A stretch of DNA of 29,913 nucleotides from the IMG/VR virus record IMGVR_UViG_2724678986_000028. The stretch is one strand, 5' to 3'. Both the position numbers and the translations under genes were made by a program. The notes under the pieces are model-generated. The model made no database searches. It was not told where the DNA came from and saw only the letters and a list, made by a program, of their open reading frames with translations. Origin of the DNA: a virus (lineage: Duplodnaviria > Heunggongvirae > Uroviricota > Caudoviricetes). This document shows positions 7,899 to 29,913 of this stretch, in pieces (position 1 is the stretch's first letter; every line of letters begins with the position of its first letter).

Positions 7899-8858
7899 AT
7901 GAAAATTTGTATCGACGACGGCTCCACCAACATCAAGCTGGCGTGGACTGAGAACGGCGAACGCCGCAACGCCATCAGCCCGAACAGCTTCAAGTCGGAA
8001 TGGTCTGCGCCGTTCGGTGGCACGCAGCCCGCGAACTACATGCTTGATGGCGTGCGCTATGGTTTTGATCCGGTCAGCGATCGCTTTGTCCAGACGACCG
8101 ACACGCAATACCAGTACAGCGATGTGAATATAATTGCCATTCATCACGCGCTGGTCAAATCAGGCATCACACCACAGGAAGTGGATGTGGTTGTCACCCT
8201 GCCACTGAGCGAGTATTTCGATACAAACGCACAGCCGGACATGGCCAACATCAACCGCAAAAAAGCGAACGTCATGCGCCCGGTGGAGTACCAGAACGGC
8301 GAAGCATTCACTATCCGTAACGTACGGGTTATGCCTGAATCCATTCCGGCTGGCTTTAAGGCACTGGCTGACATGAGTCCGTTTGAATCCCTGCTGATTG
8401 TGGATTTGGGCGGAACCACTCTGGATGTGGCAAAGGTTCAGGGGCAACTGGCAGGTATCAGCCAGGTGTTTTGCGATCCACACGTGGGCGTTTCTCTGAT
8501 GGCCGATGCCGTACTGTCGGTGATGGCCACTAACGGTATGCGCACCAGTCACCACATCGCCAATACCATTATCGAACATCGCCATGATGAAGCCTGGCTG
8601 CGCCAGCACATCCACAATGACGCGCATTACGCCAGCCTGATGGCGGTTATTCGTGAAAAGGAAGAAACACTGAAACAACGCGTGATCCGCGCGCTGGCGG
8701 GTTTTTCGGGTTACGGGCGGGTGATGGTTGTCGGTGGAGGGGCGGAGATTGTGGCACCCGCTATCCGCGAAGCCTGCGGAGTTAATGCGACTTTCATCGC
8801 GGACGGGGTGCCACAGTTTGCTCTGGTTAATGGGCTGTACGCAATGGACAAGGAGTAA
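7899..8858 (+). CDS. parM: ParM/StbA-like actin-fold partition ATPase
   Basis: 319 aa. Actin-fold motifs IDDGSTNIKL (phosphate 1), IVDLGGTTLDV (phosphate 2) and VVGGGAE (adenosine). Collinear over its full length with plasmid R1 ParM as recalled. RBS AAGGA upstream. Confidence 0.85.
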   Translation: MKICIDDGSTNIKLAWTENGERRNAISPNSFKSEWSAPFGGTQPANYMLDGVRYGFDPVSDRFVQTTDTQYQYSDVNIIAIHHALVKSGITPQEVDVVVTLPLSEYFDTNAQPDMANINRKKANVMRPVEYQNGEAFTIRNVRVMPESIPAGFKALADMSPFESLLIVDLGGTTLDVAKVQGQLAGISQVFCDPHVGVSLMADAVLSVMATNGMRTSHHIANTIIEHRHDEAWLRQHIHNDAHYASLMAVIREKEETLKQRVIRALAGFSGYGRVMVVGGGAEIVAPAIREACGVNATFIADGVPQFALVNGLYAMDKE

Positions 8859-8862
8859 ACCA

Positions 8863-9174
8863 ATGACGACTCCAACCAGACGGATAAGTTTCTATCTGAA
8901 GCCCACCGCCGTCAAGAACGAAGGAGAAGCATGCGCCTGGCTGGACAGCCTTACACCAGAAGCCCGCAAAAGCGGCCAACGCGTGGCTTTTCTGGCCGGG
9001 CTGGCACTTCTGAAAATGAATCCGGCAGAGGCTTATCGACTGGCTGCATGGGCTGGTGATGAAGCGTTATCAGTGACACAAACCAGGACAGAACGCCCCG
9101 CATCACAGCCAGTATCAACCGCACAGATAACCAGTCAGATGGCCGGAAATATCCGGGCGTTATTTCCTGAATAA
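8863..9174 (+). CDS. parR: ParR/StbB-like centromere-binding adaptor
   Basis: 103 aa from ATG 8863, with AAGGAG 7 nt upstream (the track ORF from 8728 is over-extended). N-terminal RRISFYLKP...RVAFLAGLALL resembles the ParR RHH region; C-terminal NIRALFPE resembles the R1 ParR tail as recalled. Confidence 0.6.
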   Translation: MTTPTRRISFYLKPTAVKNEGEACAWLDSLTPEARKSGQRVAFLAGLALLKMNPAEAYRLAAWAGDEALSVTQTRTERPASQPVSTAQITSQMAGNIRALFPE

Positions 9175-9182
9175 CACAACAT

Positions 9183-9200
9183 CAGGGCGAGTTCGCCCTG
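9183..9200. repeat. Stem-loop CAGGGCGA-gt-TCGCCCTG
   Basis: Perfect 8-nt inverted arms, 9 nt after the parR stop; no T tract follows. Confidence 0.5.
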
Positions 9201-9237
9201 CTCTCCACCTCAGAACATAAACAAGGAGAACGACTTA

Positions 9238-9828
9238 ATGAGCGAAATCAACTATCAGGCATTACGTGAACGTTATTCACCTGTGCCAGTACCGAAATGC
9301 CCTATTTGCGGCGAGGAAATGTCAATTCAGCGAATATCTGGAGCACAGGTTGTTTATGCCTGCTCCGGTTATGGTGATGATGGAGATTTCAAAATTGGCC
9401 GAACTCTTGCCGACGAACATTATGAAAAATCACGCGTAACAGTGTTGGATGTCGGGGATCCTGAAGTATTGGCGCTACTTGATTGGCTGGAAACCAAAGA
9501 CAACCGAATCGCTGAACTGGAAAAAATCGCCACTGACTATGCACTTAAATTCCAGAAAGCACAGGACGCATTAAAGTATGCCGCTTTGCTGCATAGCAGG
9601 ACGGCGCAACAAACAAATAATTTTGCAGTATCGCTTCCGGACATAAGCGAATATTTCATTAATGACGTATTTCAGCCCTTGCGATACGAGCGGGATGTTG
9701 AAAGAGCCATCATAAAGGCTGGCGGAAAAGCATTGTGGCAGGAGAAACACGAGGACAGAACGCATCAGTCCTGCGATGTAAATCGTGGATGGTTTAGCCC
9801 ACTGACGACAGATAAAAATAACACCTGA
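9238..9828 (+). CDS. Hypothetical protein, Cys-containing N-terminus and central coiled-coil-like segment
   Basis: 196 aa; AAGGAG 9 nt upstream; N-terminal CPICGEEM...YACSGYG. The 3' half is AT-richer. No family assigned. Confidence 0.5.
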   Translation: MSEINYQALRERYSPVPVPKCPICGEEMSIQRISGAQVVYACSGYGDDGDFKIGRTLADEHYEKSRVTVLDVGDPEVLALLDWLETKDNRIAELEKIATDYALKFQKAQDALKYAALLHSRTAQQTNNFAVSLPDISEYFINDVFQPLRYERDVERAIIKAGGKALWQEKHEDRTHQSCDVNRGWFSPLTTDKNNT

Positions 9829-17944: not shown

Positions 17945-18086
17945 CCAACCCACATGGGGAAACCTCGGAATATGGGGCGACCGCCTTCTGGATGCACTGG
18001 AAACCTGTAACGCGGATAAACGGGCCATTGCTGAACTGGATAAGAGAATAGCCGAACTGACACACCAGACGGGAGTAACACAATGA
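17805..18086 (+). CDS. o-spanin lipoprotein (LysC/Rz1-like), overlapped architecture
   Basis: Starts in the +1 frame inside the i-spanin and extends beyond it; lipobox LLTGC; Pro-rich mature part. An alternative GTG start at 17775 has a GGAGAGG RBS. Confidence 0.6.
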   Translation: MNAPTLCLTLVLLTGCAGTQNAPRPAPSVRLIPQTLTMPVTPPPFPDQPTWGNLGIWGDRLLDALETCNADKRAIAELDKRIAELTHQTGVTQ

Positions 18087-19802
18087 CCAGTAAGAACTTT
18101 GCACTGATTACAGCCATGACACAGGCTGAACTGACTCAAAAGGTGAATGAACATCTTGCGAAAGGGTGGCATCTTCAGGGGGAGACGCGGGTTGCCTACG
18201 AACCCGGCACCCCGTGGTATCTAATGCAGGCAATGGTGGCCGATGGCACTACAGACATCTCACCTGATTCCCCCCAGCACGGCAGCGTGCCGGAGTGGTA
18301 TTACGTGGTGGTACTTGCTGGTCAATCCAATGCCATGTCATATGGTGAGGGAATGCCGCTGCCGGATTCTTACGATGCGCCCCACCCACGCATTAAGCAA
18401 CTGGCCCGTCGCAACACAGTGACTCCCGGTGGTAAAGCATGCGCATTTAACGACATCATTCCGGCAGATCACTGCCTGCATGATGTTCAGGATATGAGCG
18501 CACTGAATCACCCGAATGCAGACCTGAGCAAAGGGCAGTATGGCTGTGTCGGACAGGGCTTGCATATTGCCAAACGCCTGTTGCCTTACATTCCACAGAA
18601 TGCCGGGATTTTACTGGTTCCATGCTGTCGTGGTGGTTCGGCATTCACCCAGGGCGCGGAGGGGACATTCAGCGAGTCCACAGGAGCCAGTCAGGATTCG
18701 GCTCGCTGGGGTGTGGGTAAACCTTTATATCAGGACCTGATTTTGCGCACGAAGGCCGCATTGCAGAAAAACCCAAAAAACATGCTGCTGGCCGTATGCT
18801 GGATGCAGGGCGAATTTGACATGAGCGCCGCTACGTACTCACAGCAACCTCCGCTGTTTGCGGCCATGCTGAAACAGTTTCGTGCGGACATTACCGAGTT
18901 TAACACGCAGTGTCATGGAGGCAGAGCGGCAAGTGTGCCATGGATTTGTGGTGACACGACGTATTACTGGAAAAACACCTACGGCACGCAGTACGACACC
19001 ATTTACGGGGCGTACAAAAACAGGGAGAGCGACAACGTTTTCTTTGTGCCATTCCTGACCGATGGTAGTGGCAACAATACCTCCACCAACGCACCAACGG
19101 AAGATCCGGATGCTGCAAGTGAGGGATATTACGGTTCGGCATCCCGAACGAACAAAAACTGGGTATCATCAAATCGCCAGACGCATTTCAGTTCATGGGC
19201 GCGCNNNNNNNNNNNNNNNNNNNNNNNNNNNNNNNNNNNNNNNNNNNNNNNNNNNNNNNNNNNNNNNNNNNNNNNNNNNNNNNNNNNNNNNNNNNNNNNN
19301 NNNNNNNNNNNNNNNNNNNNNNNNNNNNNNNNNNNNNNNNNNNNNNNNNNNNNNNNNNNNNNNNNNNNNNNNNNNNNNNNNNNNNNNNNNNNNNNNACTG
19401 ACCAACAATCAGTTCGGTCTGGGAATTTATCTGTATACCGATGTAGCGTTACCTGACGTCGTGGCGATGACCGGGACTGGTAACCCGTTCCTGATGTCGT
19501 TCTTCACCCAGACCACAGACGGCAAACTGAATCTGATGCATCACAAGAAAGCAGGAAACACAAAGTTGGGCGAGTTCGGGAATTACAGTAACGACTGGCA
19601 GACGCTGGAGCTGGTGTTCACCGCCGGCAGTGCCACGGTTACTCCGAAACTGAATGGAGTGGCTGGCCCGGCATTCCAGGTCATAAAAGACAGTCTGACA
19701 CTGGGGCTGAATGCACTGACGCTGACGGATATTACCAAAAATGCAACGTATGGCGTTGAGATAGAAAGTCTGGTGCTGGAAATAAATAGTCCTGCAGCGT
19801 AA
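18083..19802 (+). CDS. DUF1737 + SASA/SGNH-type carbohydrate esterase (NanS-p-like), interrupted by an assembly gap
   Basis: ATG 18083 overlaps the o-spanin stop (ATGA). N-terminal MTSKNFALITAMTQAELTQKVNEHLAKGWHLQGE (DUF1737-like) is followed by VVVLAGQSNAMSYGEG (the GQSNM-type serine motif of sialate O-acetylesterase-family hydrolases). The 5' part runs 18083-19204 and the 3' part 19397-19802 in another frame, because the N run has arbitrary length. Confidence 0.6.
19205..19396. other. Assembly gap (192 N)
   Basis: Uninterrupted run of n; the true length and sequence are unknown. Confidence 0.95.
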
Positions 19803-23271: not shown

Positions 23272-25404
23272 ATGAGTACCACAACACGAAAATTTAAAAC
23301 CGTTATCACCGATACAGGTGCCAAAAAATTAGCTCAGGCAGCCGCGCCAGATGGTAAGCCTGTCCGCCTGACTCATATGGCCGTGGGCGACGGTGGCGGC
23401 GCGTTGCCCACACCAGACAGTAAGCAGACCCGTCTGGTGCATGAGGTGTGGCGACACACTGTTAATCGCGTCATCCTGGACGCAACACATCAGAACCGCA
23501 TTATTGCGGAGCTGGTTATTCCTCCAGAAACGGGCGGATTCTGGATCCGGGAAATTGGTGTGTTTGATGAGCACGGCGATTTAATCGCGGTGGGCAATAC
23601 TGCCGAAAGTTACAAGCCAGCCGTTGCCGAAGGGTCCGGACGTGCACAAACATTTCGCACCATTCTGACCGTATCCAGCACTGCCACTGTGGCGCTTACC
23701 GTGGATAACACCATGGTGATGGCCACAGTGGATTACGTGGATAACAAACTGAAAGAGCATGAACAGTCACGATGTCACCCGGATGCCTCGCTGACCGCAA
23801 AAGGCTTTGTTCAACTCAGTAGCGCCACTAACAGCGATTCTGAAACGCTGGCTGCAACGCCGAAAGCGGTTAAGGTCGCGTATGATCTTGCTAACGGAAA
23901 ATATACAGCGCAGGATGCCACAACAGCGCGAAAAGGCCTTGTCCAGCTTAGTAGTGCAACCAACAGTACATCTGAAACGCTGGCGGCAACATCAAATGCA
24001 GTAAAAGCTGCCTATGACAATGCTGAAAAACGTCTGCAGAAAGCTAAGAATGGTGAGGATATCTCTGATAAAGACACCTTTACGAAAAATATCGGTGCCT
24101 GCCGTGCATATAGTGCAGAGCTGAATATTGGTGGAGATAGTGAAGCATGGACAACTGCGCAGTTGATTTTTTGGCTAGAGAGTCAGGGGGCATTTAACCA
24201 TCCTTACTGGATGTGCAAAGGCTCATGGGCTTATGCAAATAATAAGGTCATTACAGATACAGGTTGCGGAAGTATTTGTCTTGCAGGTGCTGTTGTGGAA
24301 GTTATTGGCACCCGCGGCGCAATGACCATACGCATTACCACACCGAGTACATCCAGCGGTGAAGGCATCCCTAATGCTCAATTTACTTATATTAATCATG
24401 GTGATGCTTATGCTCCTGGCTGGCGAAGGGACTATAACTCCAGGAATAAGCCAACAGCATCAGAGATCGGGGCGTTACCGTCAGATGGGACAGCAGTATC
24501 GTCAGTTAATCTGGCTTCAAAAGGTCGGCTGACCGCCCTGACAGATAATATGCAGGGGGCCACAGGTCTGGAGTTATACGAGGCGTATAACAACGGATAT
24601 CCAACAACGTATGGAAATATCATTCACCTGAAAGGGATGACAGCCGTTGGCGAAGGCGAATTACTCATCGGCTGGAGTGGTATAAGCGGTGCTCATGCTC
24701 CGGCATTTATTCGTTCACGACGGGATACGACCGACGCAAACTGGTCGCCGTGGGCGCAGCTTTACACCTCGGCTCATCCTCCTGAAGAGTTTTATCCAGT
24801 CGGTGCACCGATTCCGTGGCCATCAGATACCGTTCCGTCTGGTTATGCCCTGATGCAGGGGCAGACTTTTGACAAATCTGCATACCCGAAACTTGCAGTC
24901 GCTTATCCGTCAGGCGTTATTCCTGATATGCGTGGCTGGACGATTAAGGGCAAGCCCGGCAGTGGTCGTGCCGTATTGTCTCAGGAACAGGACGGCATTA
25001 AATCGCACACCCACAGCGCCAGCGCATCCAGTACGGATTTGGGGACGAAAACCACATCGTCGTTTGATTACGGTACTAAAACGACCAGTTCATTTGATTA
25101 CGGCACAAAAACTACGAATAGCGCTGGAAATCATTCACACAATATACCTGTTGGTCACACTGGCGCGGGGAATGGTGTATCAGCCGGTTATAACGCTGCG
25201 TTAGGTACTGGTACCACGTCGAGCGCAGGCGAGCATGCTCACAATGTATATATCGGTGCCCATAACCACACTATCGGCATTGGTGCTCATGCCCATTCTG
25301 TCATTATTGGTCCCCACGGACACACCATCACCGTTAACGCTACGGGTAACGAAGAAAACACCGTAAAAAACATCGCATTTAACTATATTGTGAGGCTTGC
25401 ATAA
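23272..25404 (+). CDS. H: Tail fibre protein, P2 gpH-like N-terminus with a mosaic C-terminal receptor-binding region
   Basis: 710 aa; conserved N-terminal about 150 aa; two phage-fibre repeats ([25 protein letters not shown]); [10 protein letters not shown] tandem repeats; His-rich HxH run ([31 protein letters not shown]). Confidence 0.85.
25042..25122 (+). repeat. Tandem 30-nt (10-aa [10 protein letters not shown]) repeats inside the tail fibre gene
   Basis: Units at 25042-25071 and 25072-25101, with a partial third unit; copies differ at synonymous positions. Confidence 0.6.
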
Positions 25405-25982
25405 TGACATTCAGAATGAGTGAACACTCACGGACCATAAAAATTTATAATCTACTGACCGGAACCAATGAGTTTATTGGTGAAGGTGATGCATACATTC
25501 CACCTCATACAGGTCTGCCTGCAAACAGTACCGATATTGCCCCGCCAGATATTCCGGCTGGCTTCGTGGCCGTTTTCAACAGTGATGAGGCATCGTGGCA
25601 TCTCGTTGAAGACCATCGGGGTAAAACGGTTTATGACGTGGCATCAGGGGACTCGTTATTTATTTCTGAACTCGGTCCATTACCGGAAAATGTTACCTGG
25701 TTGTCGCCGTATGGAGAGTATCAGAAGTGGAACGGCACATCCTGGGTGAAAGATGCAGAAGCAGAAAAACTGTTTCGGATAAGGGAGGCGGAAGAAACAA
25801 AAAACAGCCTGATGCAGGTAGCCAGCGAGCATATTGCGCCACTTCAGGATGCCGTAGATTTGGATATTGCAACGGAGGAAGAGGCATCGTTACTGGCTGC
25901 ATGGAAGACATACCGGGTATTGTTGAATCGTGTTAATACAGCGGTAGCAGCGGATGTTGAGTGGCCAGTCGCCCCACAATAA
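25404..25982 (+). CDS. Tail fibre assembly chaperone (gpG/Tfa family)
   Basis: 192 aa; ATGA overlap with H; C-terminal [22 protein letters not shown]...WP is typical of Tfa-family chaperones. Confidence 0.8.
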
Positions 25983-26018
25983 AGAGAAAAAGCCATCGAT
26001 TGAAATATAGATGGCTTT
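25983..26018 (-). terminator. Intrinsic terminator-like hairpin at the convergent junction, oriented for the minus-strand gene
   Basis: Perfect 9-bp stem AAAGCCATC(25989-25997)/GATGGCTTT(26010-26018) with a 12-nt loop; on the minus strand it is followed by a T-rich tract (plus-strand A-run 25981-25988). Sits between the Tfa stop and the acetyltransferase stop. Confidence 0.5.
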
Positions 26019-26025
26019 ATGTACT

Positions 26026-26598
26026 CTATTTATACAATACAACACCGCTCTTTTTAGTTATATATGTGCAGTTCGATGGTATATCTTTATTTATAAAAGA
26101 CATTGCACCTATTTTTACATTATCCCCAATTTTACGTGATAATCCAATGATGCAACAATTAGCTCCGATATCAACGTTACTACCAATTTTTACTCTTGAA
26201 CCAGGCATGTCACCATCTATCTGTCCAATGGTAGTATTCTGTCGTAACACCAGATTTTCACCAGCATCAACAGCAAAATGAACAACAATTCCAGCATGAT
26301 GGGGAATTGTTAACCCTTTTCCAATATTTGCGCCCAATCCAATTTCACAACCAAATTTGTTAATTATTTTACTGTTTAACTTTTTGGCTGCTTTCTTATG
26401 TAATTTATTACCATTAATATACATTTCGTTAGCCAACCGCCACCAGAAAAGGAAATTCCGGTTACGCTGTTTTTTCTCTCTTAAAAGCCTCCAGATATCC
26501 ATACGTTTCCGCCGAATTACTTCATATTTCCAGAAGTTTTTTAAATTAGTAGAGTCCCCAAATAAAACAAAGTGAATTGCCATTAAGTAAGACAGCAC
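26026..26598 (-). CDS. Hexapeptide-repeat (left-handed beta-helix) acetyltransferase, serine-acetyltransferase-like; candidate polysaccharide O-acetyltransferase (cargo)
   Basis: Start chosen at GTG 26598 (AAGGAG 7 nt upstream); an alternative ATG lies at 26583 and the track start at 26631. Hexapeptide repeats VKIGSNVDIGANCCIIGLSRKIGDNVKIGAMSFI and a SAT-like GLTIPHHAGIVV block. The region is strongly AT-rich compared with the backbone. Confidence 0.7.
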   Translation of the reverse strand: MLSYLMAIHFVLFGDSTNLKNFWKYEVIRRKRMDIWRLLREKKQRNRNFLFWWRLANEMYINGNKLHKKAAKKLNSKIINKFGCEIGLGANIGKGLTIPHHAGIVVHFAVDAGENLVLRQNTTIGQIDGDMPGSRVKIGSNVDIGANCCIIGLSRKIGDNVKIGAMSFINKDIPSNCTYITKKSGVVLYK

Positions 26599-26754
26599 GA
26601 TAATCTCCTTAATTATTATTTCAGACCACACATATTATAAGGTTAAGAGATTATAAAATCCTGTTGTTTGTTATTCAAAAACAATTTTCTGAGAAGGACA
26701 TACAACAGCAAGTCGCCAGTCACCTTCATCAGGAAATTGGCGACATACGTTAAA

Positions 26755-27243
26755 TCAGAGCAGCCCCTTAACTGAGCTGGTCGCGCTATTAAGGGATGAT
26801 GTCACCTTATCTTTGAAGCCGGACAACATATCGCTGAACGATGAGGATTGCAGGCGCTCCCGCAAATCCTCATCACAGCGTTCAAGAGTCAGTGAAAATT
26901 CTATCTTTTTCGCCTTACCGTAGCGATCAAACTCGGAGCGGGTCGTATTCGTTTCGGTCAGGACATACATGCCGTAAATCTGCCCGACGCCATCAATCAG
27001 AGGCCAGGGCCGTCCTGTATACGCCTGCGTGGTCAGCAGAGACAGCGACACTTCGCCACCTGTAATTTCAGGATAAAGCACACCAGAAAGAACGATGCGA
27101 TCATCACCTGCACCGATATACTGCCAGCTTGCTGAACGGTTAACGCGTTCATTTTTCACATGCCGCCAGCTTTTGTTTTGCTGTAACTGCTGATGCGGCA
27201 GCGTGCGCAGCTCAAAAACAAACATGCCATAGATCATCATCAT
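26755..27243 (-). CDS. U: Tail protein, P2 gpU-like
   Basis: Start taken at the third Met (MMMIYGMFVFEL), which has a GAGGAG RBS at correct spacing. Lies immediately downstream of the tape measure gene on the same strand, as T-U in P2. Family call is from recalled resemblance. Confidence 0.55.
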   Translation of the reverse strand: MMMIYGMFVFELRTLPHQQLQQNKSWRHVKNERVNRSASWQYIGAGDDRIVLSGVLYPEITGGEVSLSLLTTQAYTGRPWPLIDGVGQIYGMYVLTETNTTRSEFDRYGKAKKIEFSLTLERCDEDLRERLQSSSFSDMLSGFKDKVTSSLNSATSSVKGLL

Positions 27244-27255
27244 GGCCATGACTCC

Positions 27256-29913
27256 TCAATCTTTATCGTAAAAACTGCCACGCCCGGCACGGGCGCGCCG
27301 TTCCATTTCTGCCCTGACCATTTCACCGACCAGTTTCGCCAGTTCGCGGGGATTCTGCGTAACAACGTTATGCAGATGAACATGAATTTCACCGCCAAAT
27401 CTGGAGACAGCAGGCTCCCGATTACGGGAAGCTGCAGGAACTGATGCCACTGGCGATCGTATGGCCTCCGCCACCGGGCGGGAGCTGGCCGCAACAACAG
27501 GGACCAGCGCCGGAGGCAGCGGAGCCGGGACTACGGGTGTGATATTAATTGCGGGGGCAGGCTTACTGACCTGCGCAATCTTCCGCTCCTGCCACTCCCC
27601 ACGAACAGCAAGTGCGCGGGGCAGGTTCTTAAAGACAATATCGCCAGGGCCAATGCGTTTTTTCGTCTCATCAACCAGCTTACCTGTGTTATCAGCAATT
27701 TTGCTGAGTCTGCGTAGCGTCCCGGTATTGCTGTCTGTGAGCGGTTTGTTGTCTTTGGGTTTATCACCTCCGGTGCCATTGCCATTTTCCACAGGCTTCG
27801 GCGGATTGATTTTCGCCAGGTCCCCCTGAAGTAAGGCAACCTTATCCTGAAGAATGGCCGCACGCTGTGCGTCTTCGATTTTCTTGCGCGCCCTTTCCGC
27901 TTCATCCGGAAGGACGCCAAGTTTTTCAAGTATCCACGCCAGCGTATCCAGTAGCATTTTTGCAGGTGTCAGAACAAGTTGTAACGCACCGCCAAGAACG
28001 TTACCGAATATCTCGCCAGCACTGGTACATTTATCCAGCGTTTCCTTGCTGGACTCCATCGGTGACAGCAGCGATTTAAACCAGTTAAACACCTGGCTGA
28101 TCCCGCTTCCGATTGCGTCAAAAACAGGGCCAAACCGTTCAAAGGTTTCACGCAACGGGTTCAGCCTTTCCATAATCCCGCTGAACACCCCGGCAAAAAA
28201 TGCCCTGATGGGATCCCAGTATTTCCAGATAAGGACGGCAGCTCCGGCAAGCGCAGCCACGATAAGACCAACCGGACTGAACAGCGCCCCGATAGCGCCT
28301 CCCAGTAAAGAAACGGAACCCGTCACCATTCCCCATAGTGCTGGCAGGACCCTGACAGCATTCATTGATCCGGTCAGGAGAGAAAAACCAAGACGCAGTT
28401 TTGCCAGCGGACCAGCAAGCACACCAATAGCCAGCGACAACGAGCCAACCGTTGCAGTCATTGCCAGCAACGCACCGCCTGCTATCAGTAGCTGGCGCGT
28501 CAGTGCCGGATGGGCCTGCGCCAGCGCCGTCACCCTTGATACCACCCGCGTGAGCCACTGCGTGACAGAACGCAGCGGACCGTCAATCAGATCTGCAATG
28601 CGGATGCGCAACCCTTCCCATGCACTGCCGAGTGATTTCAGATCGCCGTCAAGGTTGTTGGCCATAACCTTTGCTGTGCGTTCAGCCTCACCGCGCGCGC
28701 CTTCAAGTTCTTTTCTCAGTTTGGGTAAGGAACCGTCACCCACTGCATCAACGAGCGCCATAAACGATGTGAAAGCCTCTTCTCCGGCAATGTCCTTAAA
28801 GAACGATACCCGGTCAACTTCCCCGTATTTGCGGGTGGCTTTATAAAGGTCGGCCAGCACATCCTCCATCGGGCGCATTTTACCCCCGGCATCCGAGACG
28901 GACACGCCCAGCTCTTTCAGAGCTTCTGCCGCCGCCTTTGGCGGTGATGCCAGACGAGCCAGGCTGGCACGCATTGCCGTCCCGGCATCACTCCCTCTGA
29001 TGCCCATATTCGCCAGCACACCAGCCATCGCTGCGGCCTGCTCCAGCGATATTCCCAGCTTACCCGCCACCGGACCTGCATATTTCATGGTTTCGCCCAG
29101 TGCGCGAAGGTCAGTGTTGGTACGGGTAAACGCTGCGGTGAGTGTGTCACCGACCCGGTCCATCTGGTCAGCAGAAAGGCCGAACTGCGTCAGGATATTT
29201 GAGCCAATATCTGCCGTCTCGCCGAGATCCATACCGCCAGCCGTTGCCATGCTCAGCACTCCGGGAAGCGCAGCCTGAATGGCCTGCGGTGTGAAGCCTG
29301 CCATTGCAAGAAATGCCTGCCCACTGGCGGCATCGCCTGCGGTGAACTGCGTTTCAGAGCCAAGTTTTAACGCCTGCTCACGCAGCGCCTTAAACTGCGG
29401 GCTGTTCTGGTCGATTCGCGTCAGCGCCTGAACGCGGGACATCTCTTTGCCGAACCCGATCGCGGGCTGCAAAAAACGCCCGGCAGCATAGCCGCCCGCC
29501 GCTGCCGCACCAATTGCCAGCGCACCACCTGTTTTCAGTTTTCCCGCGGTTTCCTGCGCGCGCGAATACCACTCACGCGCCCGCGTTACACGCGCAAGCG
29601 CCTGCCGTTCGCGTTCAAGCTGGTTGTTGTACTGTTCGGTGCGTCTGATGGCCTGCTGGATGGTGTTATCGCTGCCTGTCAGGGAAATGCCGTGGCGTTT
29701 CAGCTCTCCGCCAAGCTCCCGCATTTTCTGAATTTCCCGTGTGCGCGATTCATTCAGGCGTTCAAGCCGGGTGCTTAACTGCTGCATCAGCTTTTGTTGT
29801 TTTTCGCTGAGCACTGTACCCGTGCGTTGTAACTGATTAAGGGCGTTAAGCTGGCGTCGTGCTTTCACGATACCCGCATCCGCTTTACTGACAGCGTCGC
29901 GGGCGCGCTCAAA
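27256..29913 (-). CDS. T: Tail tape measure protein (gpT-like), 5' end beyond the window
   Basis: Reading frame is open to the window edge (the track start at 29868 is an internal GTG). Long helical, Ala/Gly-rich protein with hydrophobic central segments typical of tape measure proteins. Confidence 0.75.
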   Translation of the reverse strand, partial: FERARDAVSKADAGIVKARRQLNALNQLQRTGTVLSEKQQKLMQQLSTRLERLNESRTREIQKMRELGGELKRHGISLTGSDNTIQQAIRRTEQYNNQLERERQALARVTRAREWYSRAQETAGKLKTGGALAIGAAAAGGYAAGRFLQPAIGFGKEMSRVQALTRIDQNSPQFKALREQALKLGSETQFTAGDAASGQAFLAMAGFTPQAIQAALPGVLSMATAGGMDLGETADIGSNILTQFGLSADQMDRVGDTLTAAFTRTNTDLRALGETMKYAGPVAGKLGISLEQAAAMAGVLANMGIRGSDAGTAMRASLARLASPPKAAAEALKELGVSVSDAGGKMRPMEDVLADLYKATRKYGEVDRVSFFKDIAGEEAFTSFMALVDAVGDGSLPKLRKELEGARGEAERTAKVMANNLDGDLKSLGSAWEGLRIRIADLIDGPLRSVTQWLTRVVSRVTALAQAHPALTRQLLIAGGALLAMTATVGSLSLAIGVLAGPLAKLRLGFSLLTGSMNAVRVLPALWGMVTGSVSLLGGAIGALFSPVGLIVAALAGAAVLIWKYWDPIRAFFAGVFSGIMERLNPLRETFERFGPVFDAIGSGISQVFNWFKSLLSPMESSKETLDKCTSAGEIFGNVLGGALQLVLTPAKMLLDTLAWILEKLGVLPDEAERARKKIEDAQRAAILQDKVALLQGDLAKINPPKPVENGNGTGGDKPKDNKPLTDSNTGTLRRLSKIADNTGKLVDETKKRIGPGDIVFKNLPRALAVRGEWQERKIAQVSKPAPAINITPVVPAPLPPALVPVVAASSRPVAEAIRSPVASVPAASRNREPAVSRFGGEIHVHLHNVVTQNPRELAKLVGEMVRAEMERRARAGRGSFYDKD

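Follow-up and report, generated by a model that had tools for sequence, protein, structure and literature searches.

A putative lipopolysaccharide-core O-acetyltransferase gene beside the tail-fibre genes of a P2-like prophage of Escherichia coli

What does a small AT-rich gene placed behind the tail-fibre genes of an Escherichia coli prophage encode, and on which molecule does its product act? This question is raised by the 29,913-nucleotide (nt) viral record IMGVR_UViG_2724678986_000028 (the whole stretch is called the window below), a P2-like prophage of E. coli that carries a gene for a 190-amino-acid (aa) acetyltransferase. The region 25300-27300 is 100% identical to many chromosomes of E. 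coli strains that produce Shiga toxin (STEC), e.g. O103 RM8385, O111:H11 and O26:H11. Based on sequence comparison and structure prediction, the gene product may be a cytoplasmic O-acetyltransferase of the lipopolysaccharide (LPS) core that travels with the receptor-binding module of the phage and alters adsorption in lysogens; we favour this reading tentatively and hold it to be somewhat short of probable. The following features of the locus were used in the analysis:

26026-26598, minus strand: acetyltransferase coding sequence (CDS), 190 aa, GTG start, serine acetyltransferase (SAT)/WcaB-like left-handed beta-helix (LbH) enzyme with a five-helix N-terminal domain (open reading frame (ORF) call, homology, AlphaFold2)
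26605-26610, minus strand: Shine-Dalgarno sequence AAGGAG, 6-nt spacer to the GTG start (read from the letters; kept in the homologous loci L073, L076, L078 and L079)
26650-26678, minus strand: sigma-70-like promoter TTGAAT-17-TATAAT, 10 of 12 positions matching (consensus match only)
25977-26018, minus strand: intrinsic terminator of the acetyltransferase gene, hairpin and U-run (folding energy)
25983-26754, no strand: AT-rich island, 34.1% GC, from the tfa stop to the U stop (composition)
25404-25982, plus strand: tail-fibre assembly chaperone gpG/Tfa, Caudo_TAP type, the conserved convergent partner (profile matches, neighbour comparison)
23272-25404, plus strand: tail fibre gpH (profile and nucleotide matches)

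The minus-strand ORF is exactly the RefSeq CDS WP_000954196, annotated as 'serine O-acetyltransferase' in E. coli O103 RM8385 (L001 12727..13299; L001 is the RM8385 locus, and window coordinates equal L001 coordinates plus 13299), and its start position is shared by the aligned homologues (MLSYLMAIHF...). The gene call of an earlier, sequence-only reading of this DNA was thereby borne out, as were the ribosome-binding site and the hairpin terminator that it had described. The hairpin at about 25989-26018 is followed by UUUUUCUCUUUAUU on the minus strand, has a folding energy of -16.2 kcal/mol (z = -3.75; none of 200 shuffled sequences was as stable) and occupies the 43-nt gap separating the stop codons of the convergent tfa and acetyltransferase genes; a simple terminator scanner missed it because of its loop-length rule. 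The promoter match lies within a leader of about 95 nt that is conserved across differing phage contexts. In this leader neither a riboswitch nor a small RNA was found, as an Rfam scan of 25900-26900 gave sub-threshold chance matches only. Tandem Repeats Finder detected neither tandem nor heptanucleotide repeats in 25900-26800, so that no phase-variation tract is present at the 5' end, again as read from the letters before. The AT-rich island was also recovered, with 34.1% GC in 25983-26754 against 48-57% in tfa, H, U and T; the 'GC-rich backbone' ascribed to the surroundings was somewhat overstated, the whole window having 52.5% GC. Pairwise ratios of non-synonymous to synonymous substitution rates (dN/dS) were 0.09-0.26 against eight alleles, and therefore the gene is under purifying selection; it is confirmed as real and intact.

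To which family the protein belongs was addressed by structure prediction and profile searches. An AlphaFold2 model built from 94 homologues (predicted local distance difference test score 93.4) consists of five N-terminal helices and a beta-helix starting at about residue 85, and Foldseek matched it to LbH enzymes with a probability of 1.00, in agreement with the fold that had been predicted. The Pfam Hexapep model was sub-threshold for the protein itself (24 vs 27 bits), and homologues carry precomputed PF00132 matches. In addition, the phage family PHROG 2154, which has no assigned function, was matched over nearly its entire length (E = 1.4e-87, residues 13-190 on positions 3-181 of the 185-position profile). 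The top sequence matches (phmmer) and fold matches (Foldseek) in the Protein Data Bank (PDB) were all of the CysE type (E = 1e-12, template modelling (TM) score ~0.7). The NCBIfam cut-offs for CysE were nevertheless failed by far (TIGR01172, 61.7 vs 210.65 bits; NF008349, 36.8 vs 397 bits), as were those for WcaB (NF007564, 54.8 vs 196 bits; TIGR04016, 54.0 vs 194.65 bits), and EpsC (NF041874), the best curated model, reached about half of its cut-off (75.4 vs 150 bits). In BLASTP searches, the window enzyme matched WcaB with 35% identity and 58 bits and CysE with 42 bits.

The alignment with CysE and WcaB of E. coli revealed that the catalytic His/acidic pair is kept: H100 corresponds to CysE H158 and E85 to D143. 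H100 is present in at least 90% of the 94 family members, and the position of E85 is occupied by Glu or Asp across the family. The roles of CysE D92, D157, R192 and H193 are known from published SAT structures of E. coli and H. influenzae. The serine-binding residues D157, R192 and H193 are absent from the window enzyme, in which D157 is replaced by Pro99 and R192/H193 are not conserved; the D92 region has no counterpart. No Pfam match to the SATase_N domain was obtained, and the C-terminus (...SGVVLYK) lacks the terminal Ile that binds CysK. The genomic neighbours are tail genes and form neither a cysteine-synthesis nor a wca cluster. As a control, a profile search of genome contigs was performed, in which the matches listed were mostly distant true CysE proteins; at least six members of the acetyltransferase family were recovered. 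The distant homologues (28-40% identity) were genuine CysE located beside cysS or cysK, and among the matches listed 18 of 135 neighbours were CysRS and 6 PALP enzymes. None of the acetyltransferase family members adjoins cysK, cysS or cysM in the contexts examined. On sequence grounds, the acetyltransferase is not CysE and not a serine acetyltransferase, and the RefSeq label is wrong; the SAT-like enzyme distinct from housekeeping CysE that had been foreseen thus withstood the profile search. Judged by eye, the homologue of Hafnia phage yong2 (L101 4043-4588) carries a Tyr where the near-invariant catalytic His of the family would lie (...NIAYLSGVV... against ...TIPHHAGIV...); this protein may be inactive or may have a shifted active site.

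Relatives in chromosomal LPS-core clusters provide clues to the acceptor. In Leminorella grimontii the acetyltransferase gene is found in the order glycosyltransferase (GT) family GT4 - GT8 - WaaY - (MptE-like) - acetyltransferase - WaaL, in Halopseudomonas oceani in the order HldE - MsbA - Kdo/WaaP-family kinase - acetyltransferase, and in a Pseudomonas sp. metagenome-assembled genome in the order Mig-14 - MsbA - acetyltransferase - GT - GT8-like - WaaL-like. The gene of the latter has a GC content of 63%, which matches the 66% of the locus, and therefore looks native there. A fourth arrangement, of the P. mendocina type, is represented by 24 contigs with four Kdo/WaaP kinases - carbamoyltransferase - GT2 - acetyltransferase, in which the acetyltransferase start overlaps the GT2 stop and MsbA and Mig-14 follow after two more genes. 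These waa-cluster relatives are 39-48% identical to the window enzyme. The Leminorella protein shares 57% identity (210 bits) with the enzyme of the Citrobacter rodentium phage phiNP and 48% (137 bits) with the window enzyme, against the 58 and 42 bits of the latter to WcaB and CysE; the phage and waa-cluster acetyltransferases form one family. O-acetylation of the Pseudomonas core has been reported, with the enzyme left unassigned, and the P. mendocina-type protein is a candidate for it. We also observed that this member (L187-L189 6001-6570) is translationally coupled to GT2 inside a waaP-wapO-msbA core cluster.

Cargo genes of other phages and a known phage receptor point in the same direction. 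Families HtrL_YibB and GT9 are associated with the LPS core. In other phages, the tail-fibre-proximal slot also holds a gene of the HtrL_YibB family (L087 3753-4610) or a GT9 heptosyltransferase-family gene (L183 6064-7194). The receptor of phiNP, a carrier of the acetyltransferase cassette, is the LPS outer-core GlcII, as identified by transposon and waa-knockout analysis (PMC6456863). Contextual evidence, namely the waa-cluster relatives, the HtrL/GT9 co-cargo and the phiNP receptor, narrows the putative acceptor to the LPS core, away from O-antigen and capsule. Carriers of the gene include O157:H7, O26, O103, O111 and O104:H4 strains, and this spread argues against an acceptor specific to one O-antigen unit. 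Lysogenic conversion by O-acetylation of LPS or capsule had been suggested from the letters; surface-glycan acetylation stays the best reading, while capsule and O-antigen gave way to the LPS core. Three further observations concern these loci. In L091 (6161-6889) the same slot is shared by a 242-aa protein that lacks annotation but has a DxD-like motif. A small gene without Pfam match lies 30 nt upstream of the acetyltransferase gene in L085-L087 and codes for 89 aa (88 aa in L086); its product may be a helix-turn-helix protein, and the two genes may form an operon. The late region of phiNP also contains a gene annotated 'alpha-2,3-sialyltransferase' (L193 23165-23695); it may be further cargo for glycan modification, unless the annotation is mistaken.

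The constant partner of the acetyltransferase gene is the tail-fibre/chaperone module. A convergent tfa gene was found within 200 nt of the acetyltransferase stop in 65 of the 73 assessable IMG/VR loci, i.e. in all 56 loci with at least 85% acetyltransferase identity and in 9 of 17 below, including loci at 45-66% identity. Acetyltransferase and tfa identities co-vary (Spearman 0.85, only indicative as the sample is redundant). The same tfa-convergent arrangement is present in Citrobacter phiNP (44% identity) and Hafnia yong2 (~37%). In a Proteus mirabilis prophage the acetyltransferase gene overlaps a convergent gene of 457 aa, which follows baseplate genes, and in Buttiauxella a homologue lies in a tail cluster. 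The linkage to tail fibre and chaperone thus persists down to about 35% identity in P2-like, P1-like, phiNP, Hafnia and Proteus phages. In the P1-like phage-plasmids JL22 and Ro157c2YLVW, the C-terminal tip of gpH, tfa and the acetyltransferase gene are 93-95% identical to the window at the nucleotide level; in JL22 the acetyltransferase gene is located between tfa and U, within the tail-fibre region that adjoins cin. In the window prophage, fibre tip and tfa are similar to lambda Stf/Tfa (~89% nucleotide identity).

Taken together, the following mechanism is proposed. The gene would be transcribed in the lysogen from a promoter of its own, on the strand opposite to the tail-fibre operon, and its product, a soluble, acetyl-CoA-dependent O-acetyltransferase of the SAT/WcaB-like LbH clade, would O-acetylate a sugar of the LPS core oligosaccharide. 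This would happen while lipid A-core is still under assembly on the cytoplasmic side of the inner membrane and has yet to be flipped by MsbA. The altered core would change the adsorption of LPS-core-binding phages, including those with the same kind of fibre, so that the effect would be receptor masking, i.e. superinfection exclusion, and fibre tip, chaperone and enzyme would be passed on and swapped together as a single cassette. A stricter version, which we regard as possible but doubtful, would be a portable two-part cassette in temperate phages of several unrelated architectures (P2-like, P1-like, phiNP-like and others), of which the fibre tip and chaperone read an LPS-core epitope while a convergently transcribed soluble LbH enzyme captured from a waa cluster O-acetylates this same epitope in the lysogen. 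We infer the acceptor, the activity of the gene in lysogens and its influence on adsorption, as indeed all that goes beyond an active non-CysE LbH enzyme, its coupling to the tail fibre and its waa-cluster relatives.

A number of points weigh against an LPS-core O-acetyltransferase that masks a phage receptor. The receptor reported for lambda Stf is OmpC, and given the Stf-like fibre of the window prophage, literal masking of its own receptor may therefore fail. The core types of E. coli are not known to bear O-acetyl groups, although these are stripped by alkaline deacylation in the customary work-up. The window enzyme and the waa-cluster relatives share no more than 39-48% identity, which leaves room for a change of acceptor. 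Several family members have no LPS context: orphans (L104, L182, L186, L019) or genes between housekeeping genes, genes beside integrases and one on a plasmid that is probably of the EAF type. The linkage to tfa could also result from co-mobility in a recombination-prone cargo slot and not from shared function, and the promoter is only a consensus match. No functional study of this acetyltransferase family was found in the literature, and in the JL22 paper, the only one found to discuss the gene, it is stated as unknown why the gene is present.

Other functions were weighed on the same evidence. The enzyme might O-acetylate a different envelope glycan at the cytoplasmic face, such as undecaprenyl diphosphate-linked O-units, enterobacterial common antigen (ECA), colanic-acid units, capsule or a nucleotide sugar, which would still amount to lysogenic conversion. 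Its closest curated models are indeed enzymes of polysaccharide loci (EpsC, 75 bits; WcaB, 55 bits), WcaB is slightly nearer than CysE by BLASTP (58 vs 42 bits), and prophage acetyltransferases are common and have been linked to Klebsiella capsule type (PMC13123978). However, the EpsC and WcaB scores are far under the cut-offs, none of the examined family members belongs to a gene cluster for O-antigen, capsule, colanic acid (wca) or ECA while four independent ones lie in waa clusters, and the gene is spread across many O-serogroups, which leaves this explanation unlikely, if worth keeping in view. An intracellular anti-phage or anti-defence effector, or an acetyltransferase of small molecules or xenobiotics without surface-glycan role, appears improbable. 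Such an effector would fit the fun(Z) locus, which is reported to be rich in defence genes among P2-like phages, and a gene that occurs as a singleton on phages, plasmids and islands, sometimes near toxin-antitoxin genes (HicAB in phiNP and Morganella, hok in E. coli), but it would leave the waa-cluster homologues and the tight tfa pairing unexplained. Moreover, known anti-phage defence families gave no match at E <= 1 among the 5,027 models of PADLOC-DB 2.0, and xenobiotic acetyltransferases (XAT) of the CatB/Vat type were found neither among 25 NCBIfam matches (E <= 0.1) nor among 37 PDB matches (E <= 0.01); the alternative of an antibiotic acetyltransferase, raised in the sequence-only reading, was thus not supported.

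Still more improbable is that the enzyme truly acetylates serine, insensitive to feedback, and thereby increases O-acetylserine and cysteine, or CysB signalling, of its host. The RefSeq name, the CysE-type top PDB sequence and fold matches and the conserved catalytic His and acidic residue speak for it; both CysE profile cut-offs are missed by a factor of 3 to 10, however, SATase_N, D92, D157, R192/H193 and the CysK-binding tail are all missing, and the gene is never beside cysK, cysS or cysM, unlike the real CysE of the same scan. That the gene is a passenger which hitch-hikes with a mobile fibre-tip/tfa cassette, with no host-directed function in this phage, would account for the fact that P2-like and P1-like phages have exchanged all three genes (fibre tip, tfa, acetyltransferase) jointly, with 93-95% nucleotide identity. 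It is very improbable in view of the low dN/dS, the intact CDS in the records listed among 530 carrier genomes and the catalytic residues kept in the 94-member alignment.

The sequence-only reading had further paired the acetyltransferase with an esterase of the late operon, as writer and eraser acting on one bacterial surface glycan. The esterase gene is located between lysC and a tail-completion gene of the prophage:

18083-19802, plus strand: NanS-p-type sialate O-acetylesterase, DUF1737 + SASA/NanS + DUF6645/NanS-p C-domain (profile and PDB matches)

Its apparent frameshift (ORFs 18083-19456 and 19062-19802) is due to 192 masked N at 19205-19396; a true frameshift was rejected, as the gene is intact at 625 codons in the identical RM8385 prophage. 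The 625-aa RM8385 protein matched NanS (3pt5, E = 2e-124) and the NanS-p C-terminal domain (6yp6, E = 3e-31), and therefore the esterase is a NanS-p sialate 9-O-acetylesterase. One prophage holds both genes, and both products handle O-acetyl groups. Carrier serogroups such as O157, O26, O103 and O111 are not known to be sialylated, which weighs against the pairing. In phiNP, the only further carrier checked as a complete genome, the acetyltransferase occurs without a NanS-p homologue, and the other examined loci likewise yielded none. Nor is the esterase, in contrast to the tail-fibre/chaperone module, a constant partner of the acetyltransferase. In the NanS-p papers located, which concern lambdoid Stx phages, the family is described as acting on host-derived O-acetylated sialic acids. 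The writer/eraser pair was therefore abandoned as scarcely credible. The occurrence of NanS-p in the lysis cassette of a P2-like carrier is possibly noteworthy in itself.

The position of the acetyltransferase gene was compared with the layout of P2. In RM8385 the gene order is P2-like from capsid through ogr, and the end of the prophage adjoins a tRNA cluster. The gene lies downstream of G on the opposite strand, so that slot, as had been noted before, and orientation relative to G are those of fun(Z) in P2; together with its own promoter match, ribosome-binding site and terminator, this upholds the earlier view of an autonomous AT-rich moron carrying a SAT-like LbH acetyltransferase. The P2-like contigs L081 and L084 exhibit the canonical order, with H-G, the acetyltransferase gene on the opposite strand and FI-FII-E-T. 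In the window, U takes the place of FI as the far neighbour of the gene, with G (tfa) on the other side, because the prophage has the FI-FII-E-E'-T-U block turned round compared with P2 (window 26755-29913, minus strand; L001 13456-20289); gpD stays on the plus strand, divergent from FI. The resulting tfa-acetyltransferase-U junction is common to about 495 E. coli genomes. A search for inverted repeats around the block in L001 yielded only short, imperfect pairs and none at the junctions, by which an active invertible segment was ruled out. In the inverted arrangement, gpD has no pF upstream. The fun(Z) position has been described as a second defence-enriched locus of P2-like phages (Vassallo et al., PMC9519451).

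Several other genes of the prophage were recorded. The gpA-gpQ (old/tin) defence hotspot at 7899-9828 (plus strand) contains a ParM/StbA-like actin ATPase, a Plasmid_stab_B protein and an Ead/Ea22-like protein, i.e. a plasmid-partition-like pair in an integrated P2-like prophage, with no recognised defence system. A YecA-family gene lies between gpD and ogr (L001 20689-21828), and a hok/gef toxin gene is located at the prophage end beside a Leu/Cys/Gly tRNA cluster (L001 22569-22709). In a different E. coli prophage (L003-L007), a hok/gef gene is also found ahead of P0029, a homologue of the acetyltransferase.

The distribution of the gene was determined next. At about 85% nucleotide identity or better, it is present in 530 of 5,426 complete E. 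coli genomes, at 533 chromosomal places and 66 on plasmids of ~95-102 kb, and carriers include the O157:H7, O26, O103, O111 and O104:H4 strains named above. In every record listed among the 530 carrier genomes the CDS is intact. At least 270 IMG/VR viral contigs encode a relative. Outside phages and waa clusters, the homologue P0039 (50% identity) was observed on the E. coli plasmid contigs L012-L015, probably of the EAF type, a few genes downstream of type-IV-pilus (probably bfp) genes and surrounded by IS66 fragments and remnants of the type III secretion effectors EspF and IpaB_EvcA. In the literature, the C. rodentium phiNP publication lists the acetyltransferase merely as a 'fitness' gene, acetyltransferases are not mentioned by Rousset 2022 or in the 2026 Nucleic Acids Research paper on P2/P4, and an O157:H7 proteomics paper makes no statement about this acetyltransferase.

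How the window enzyme relates to known systems can be summarised as follows. The waa-cluster enzymes of Leminorella, Halopseudomonas and Pseudomonas share with it the catalytic His as well as two motifs, FWWRLA in an N-terminal helix and RQNTTIG; in contrast to the window gene, theirs are chromosomal, have native GC content, are co-oriented or coupled with core glycosyltransferases and do not lie beside tail-fibre genes. WcaB resembles it as a short SAT-like LbH protein with reduced N-terminal helices, without the CysE serine-binding residues and with ...TIHHG... for ...TIPHHAG...; it differs in that identity is only 35%, the WcaB model is missed (54.8 vs 196 bits) and WcaB lies in the wca cluster, whereas the window gene is phage cargo. 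CysE is the best solved-structure match and has the catalytic His/acidic pair in common (Asp in CysE, Glu in the window enzyme); the window enzyme lacks SATase_N, the serine-binding residues, the CysK tail and a cysteine-regulon context. Fun(Z) of P2 occupies the same slot in the same orientation, convergent downstream of G, and is a lysogenic-conversion or exclusion gene, as proposed for the window gene, but the protein is unrelated (CDS 15675-17261 in P2) and is reported to block T5 growth instead of modifying a glycan.

NeuO of prophage CUS-3 in E. coli K1 is a soluble hexapeptide-repeat acetyl-CoA enzyme that O-acetylates polysialic acid from the cytoplasmic side. The window enzyme is similarly prophage-borne, soluble and of the hexapeptide-repeat type, and by analogy may act on a surface glycan; it differs by the lack of phase-variation repeats, by hosts that are not K1 and by the likely acceptor, LPS core instead of polysialic acid. 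As no NeuO chain was named among the 37 PDB matches at E <= 0.01, the NeuO parallel drawn in the earlier note is one of function only, with no specific sequence relationship detected. O-antigen acetylation by the prophage enzymes Oac of Sf6 and Oac of phiV10 blocks adsorption. GtrC of BTP1/P22-like phages likewise acetylates LPS in the lysogen and blocks adsorption, and an analogous role is proposed for the window enzyme. The acyltransferase-3 proteins Oac and GtrC are, however, multi-pass membrane proteins of unrelated fold and topology that act at the periplasmic side on O-antigen and are encoded near int/att, whereas the window enzyme is a soluble LbH protein with the core as its putative target, encoded next to the tail fibre. 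That prophage glycan acetylation alters phage receptors is already known; new are the inferred core target, the soluble SAT-like enzyme and the linkage to the tail-fibre module.

A gene that is annotated but mislabelled is thus present in about one tenth of the complete E. coli genomes, including major Shiga-toxin-producing lineages, and in P1-like phage-plasmids. If the proposed function is correct, this would be the first assignment of an LPS-core O-acetyltransferase family, which would give a name to the homologues inside the core clusters of Pseudomonas and Leminorella and could explain Pseudomonas core O-acetylation. It would imply a cryptic core modification in some 10% of sequenced E. 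coli, O157:H7, O26, O103, O111 and O104:H4 included, and an overlooked lysogenic conversion affecting phage susceptibility, which would matter for phage therapy and phage typing of STEC; interactions of antibodies or antimicrobial peptides with the core may also be affected. The genes for binding and for editing a receptor, and with them host range and masking, would then be inherited and swapped as a single module.

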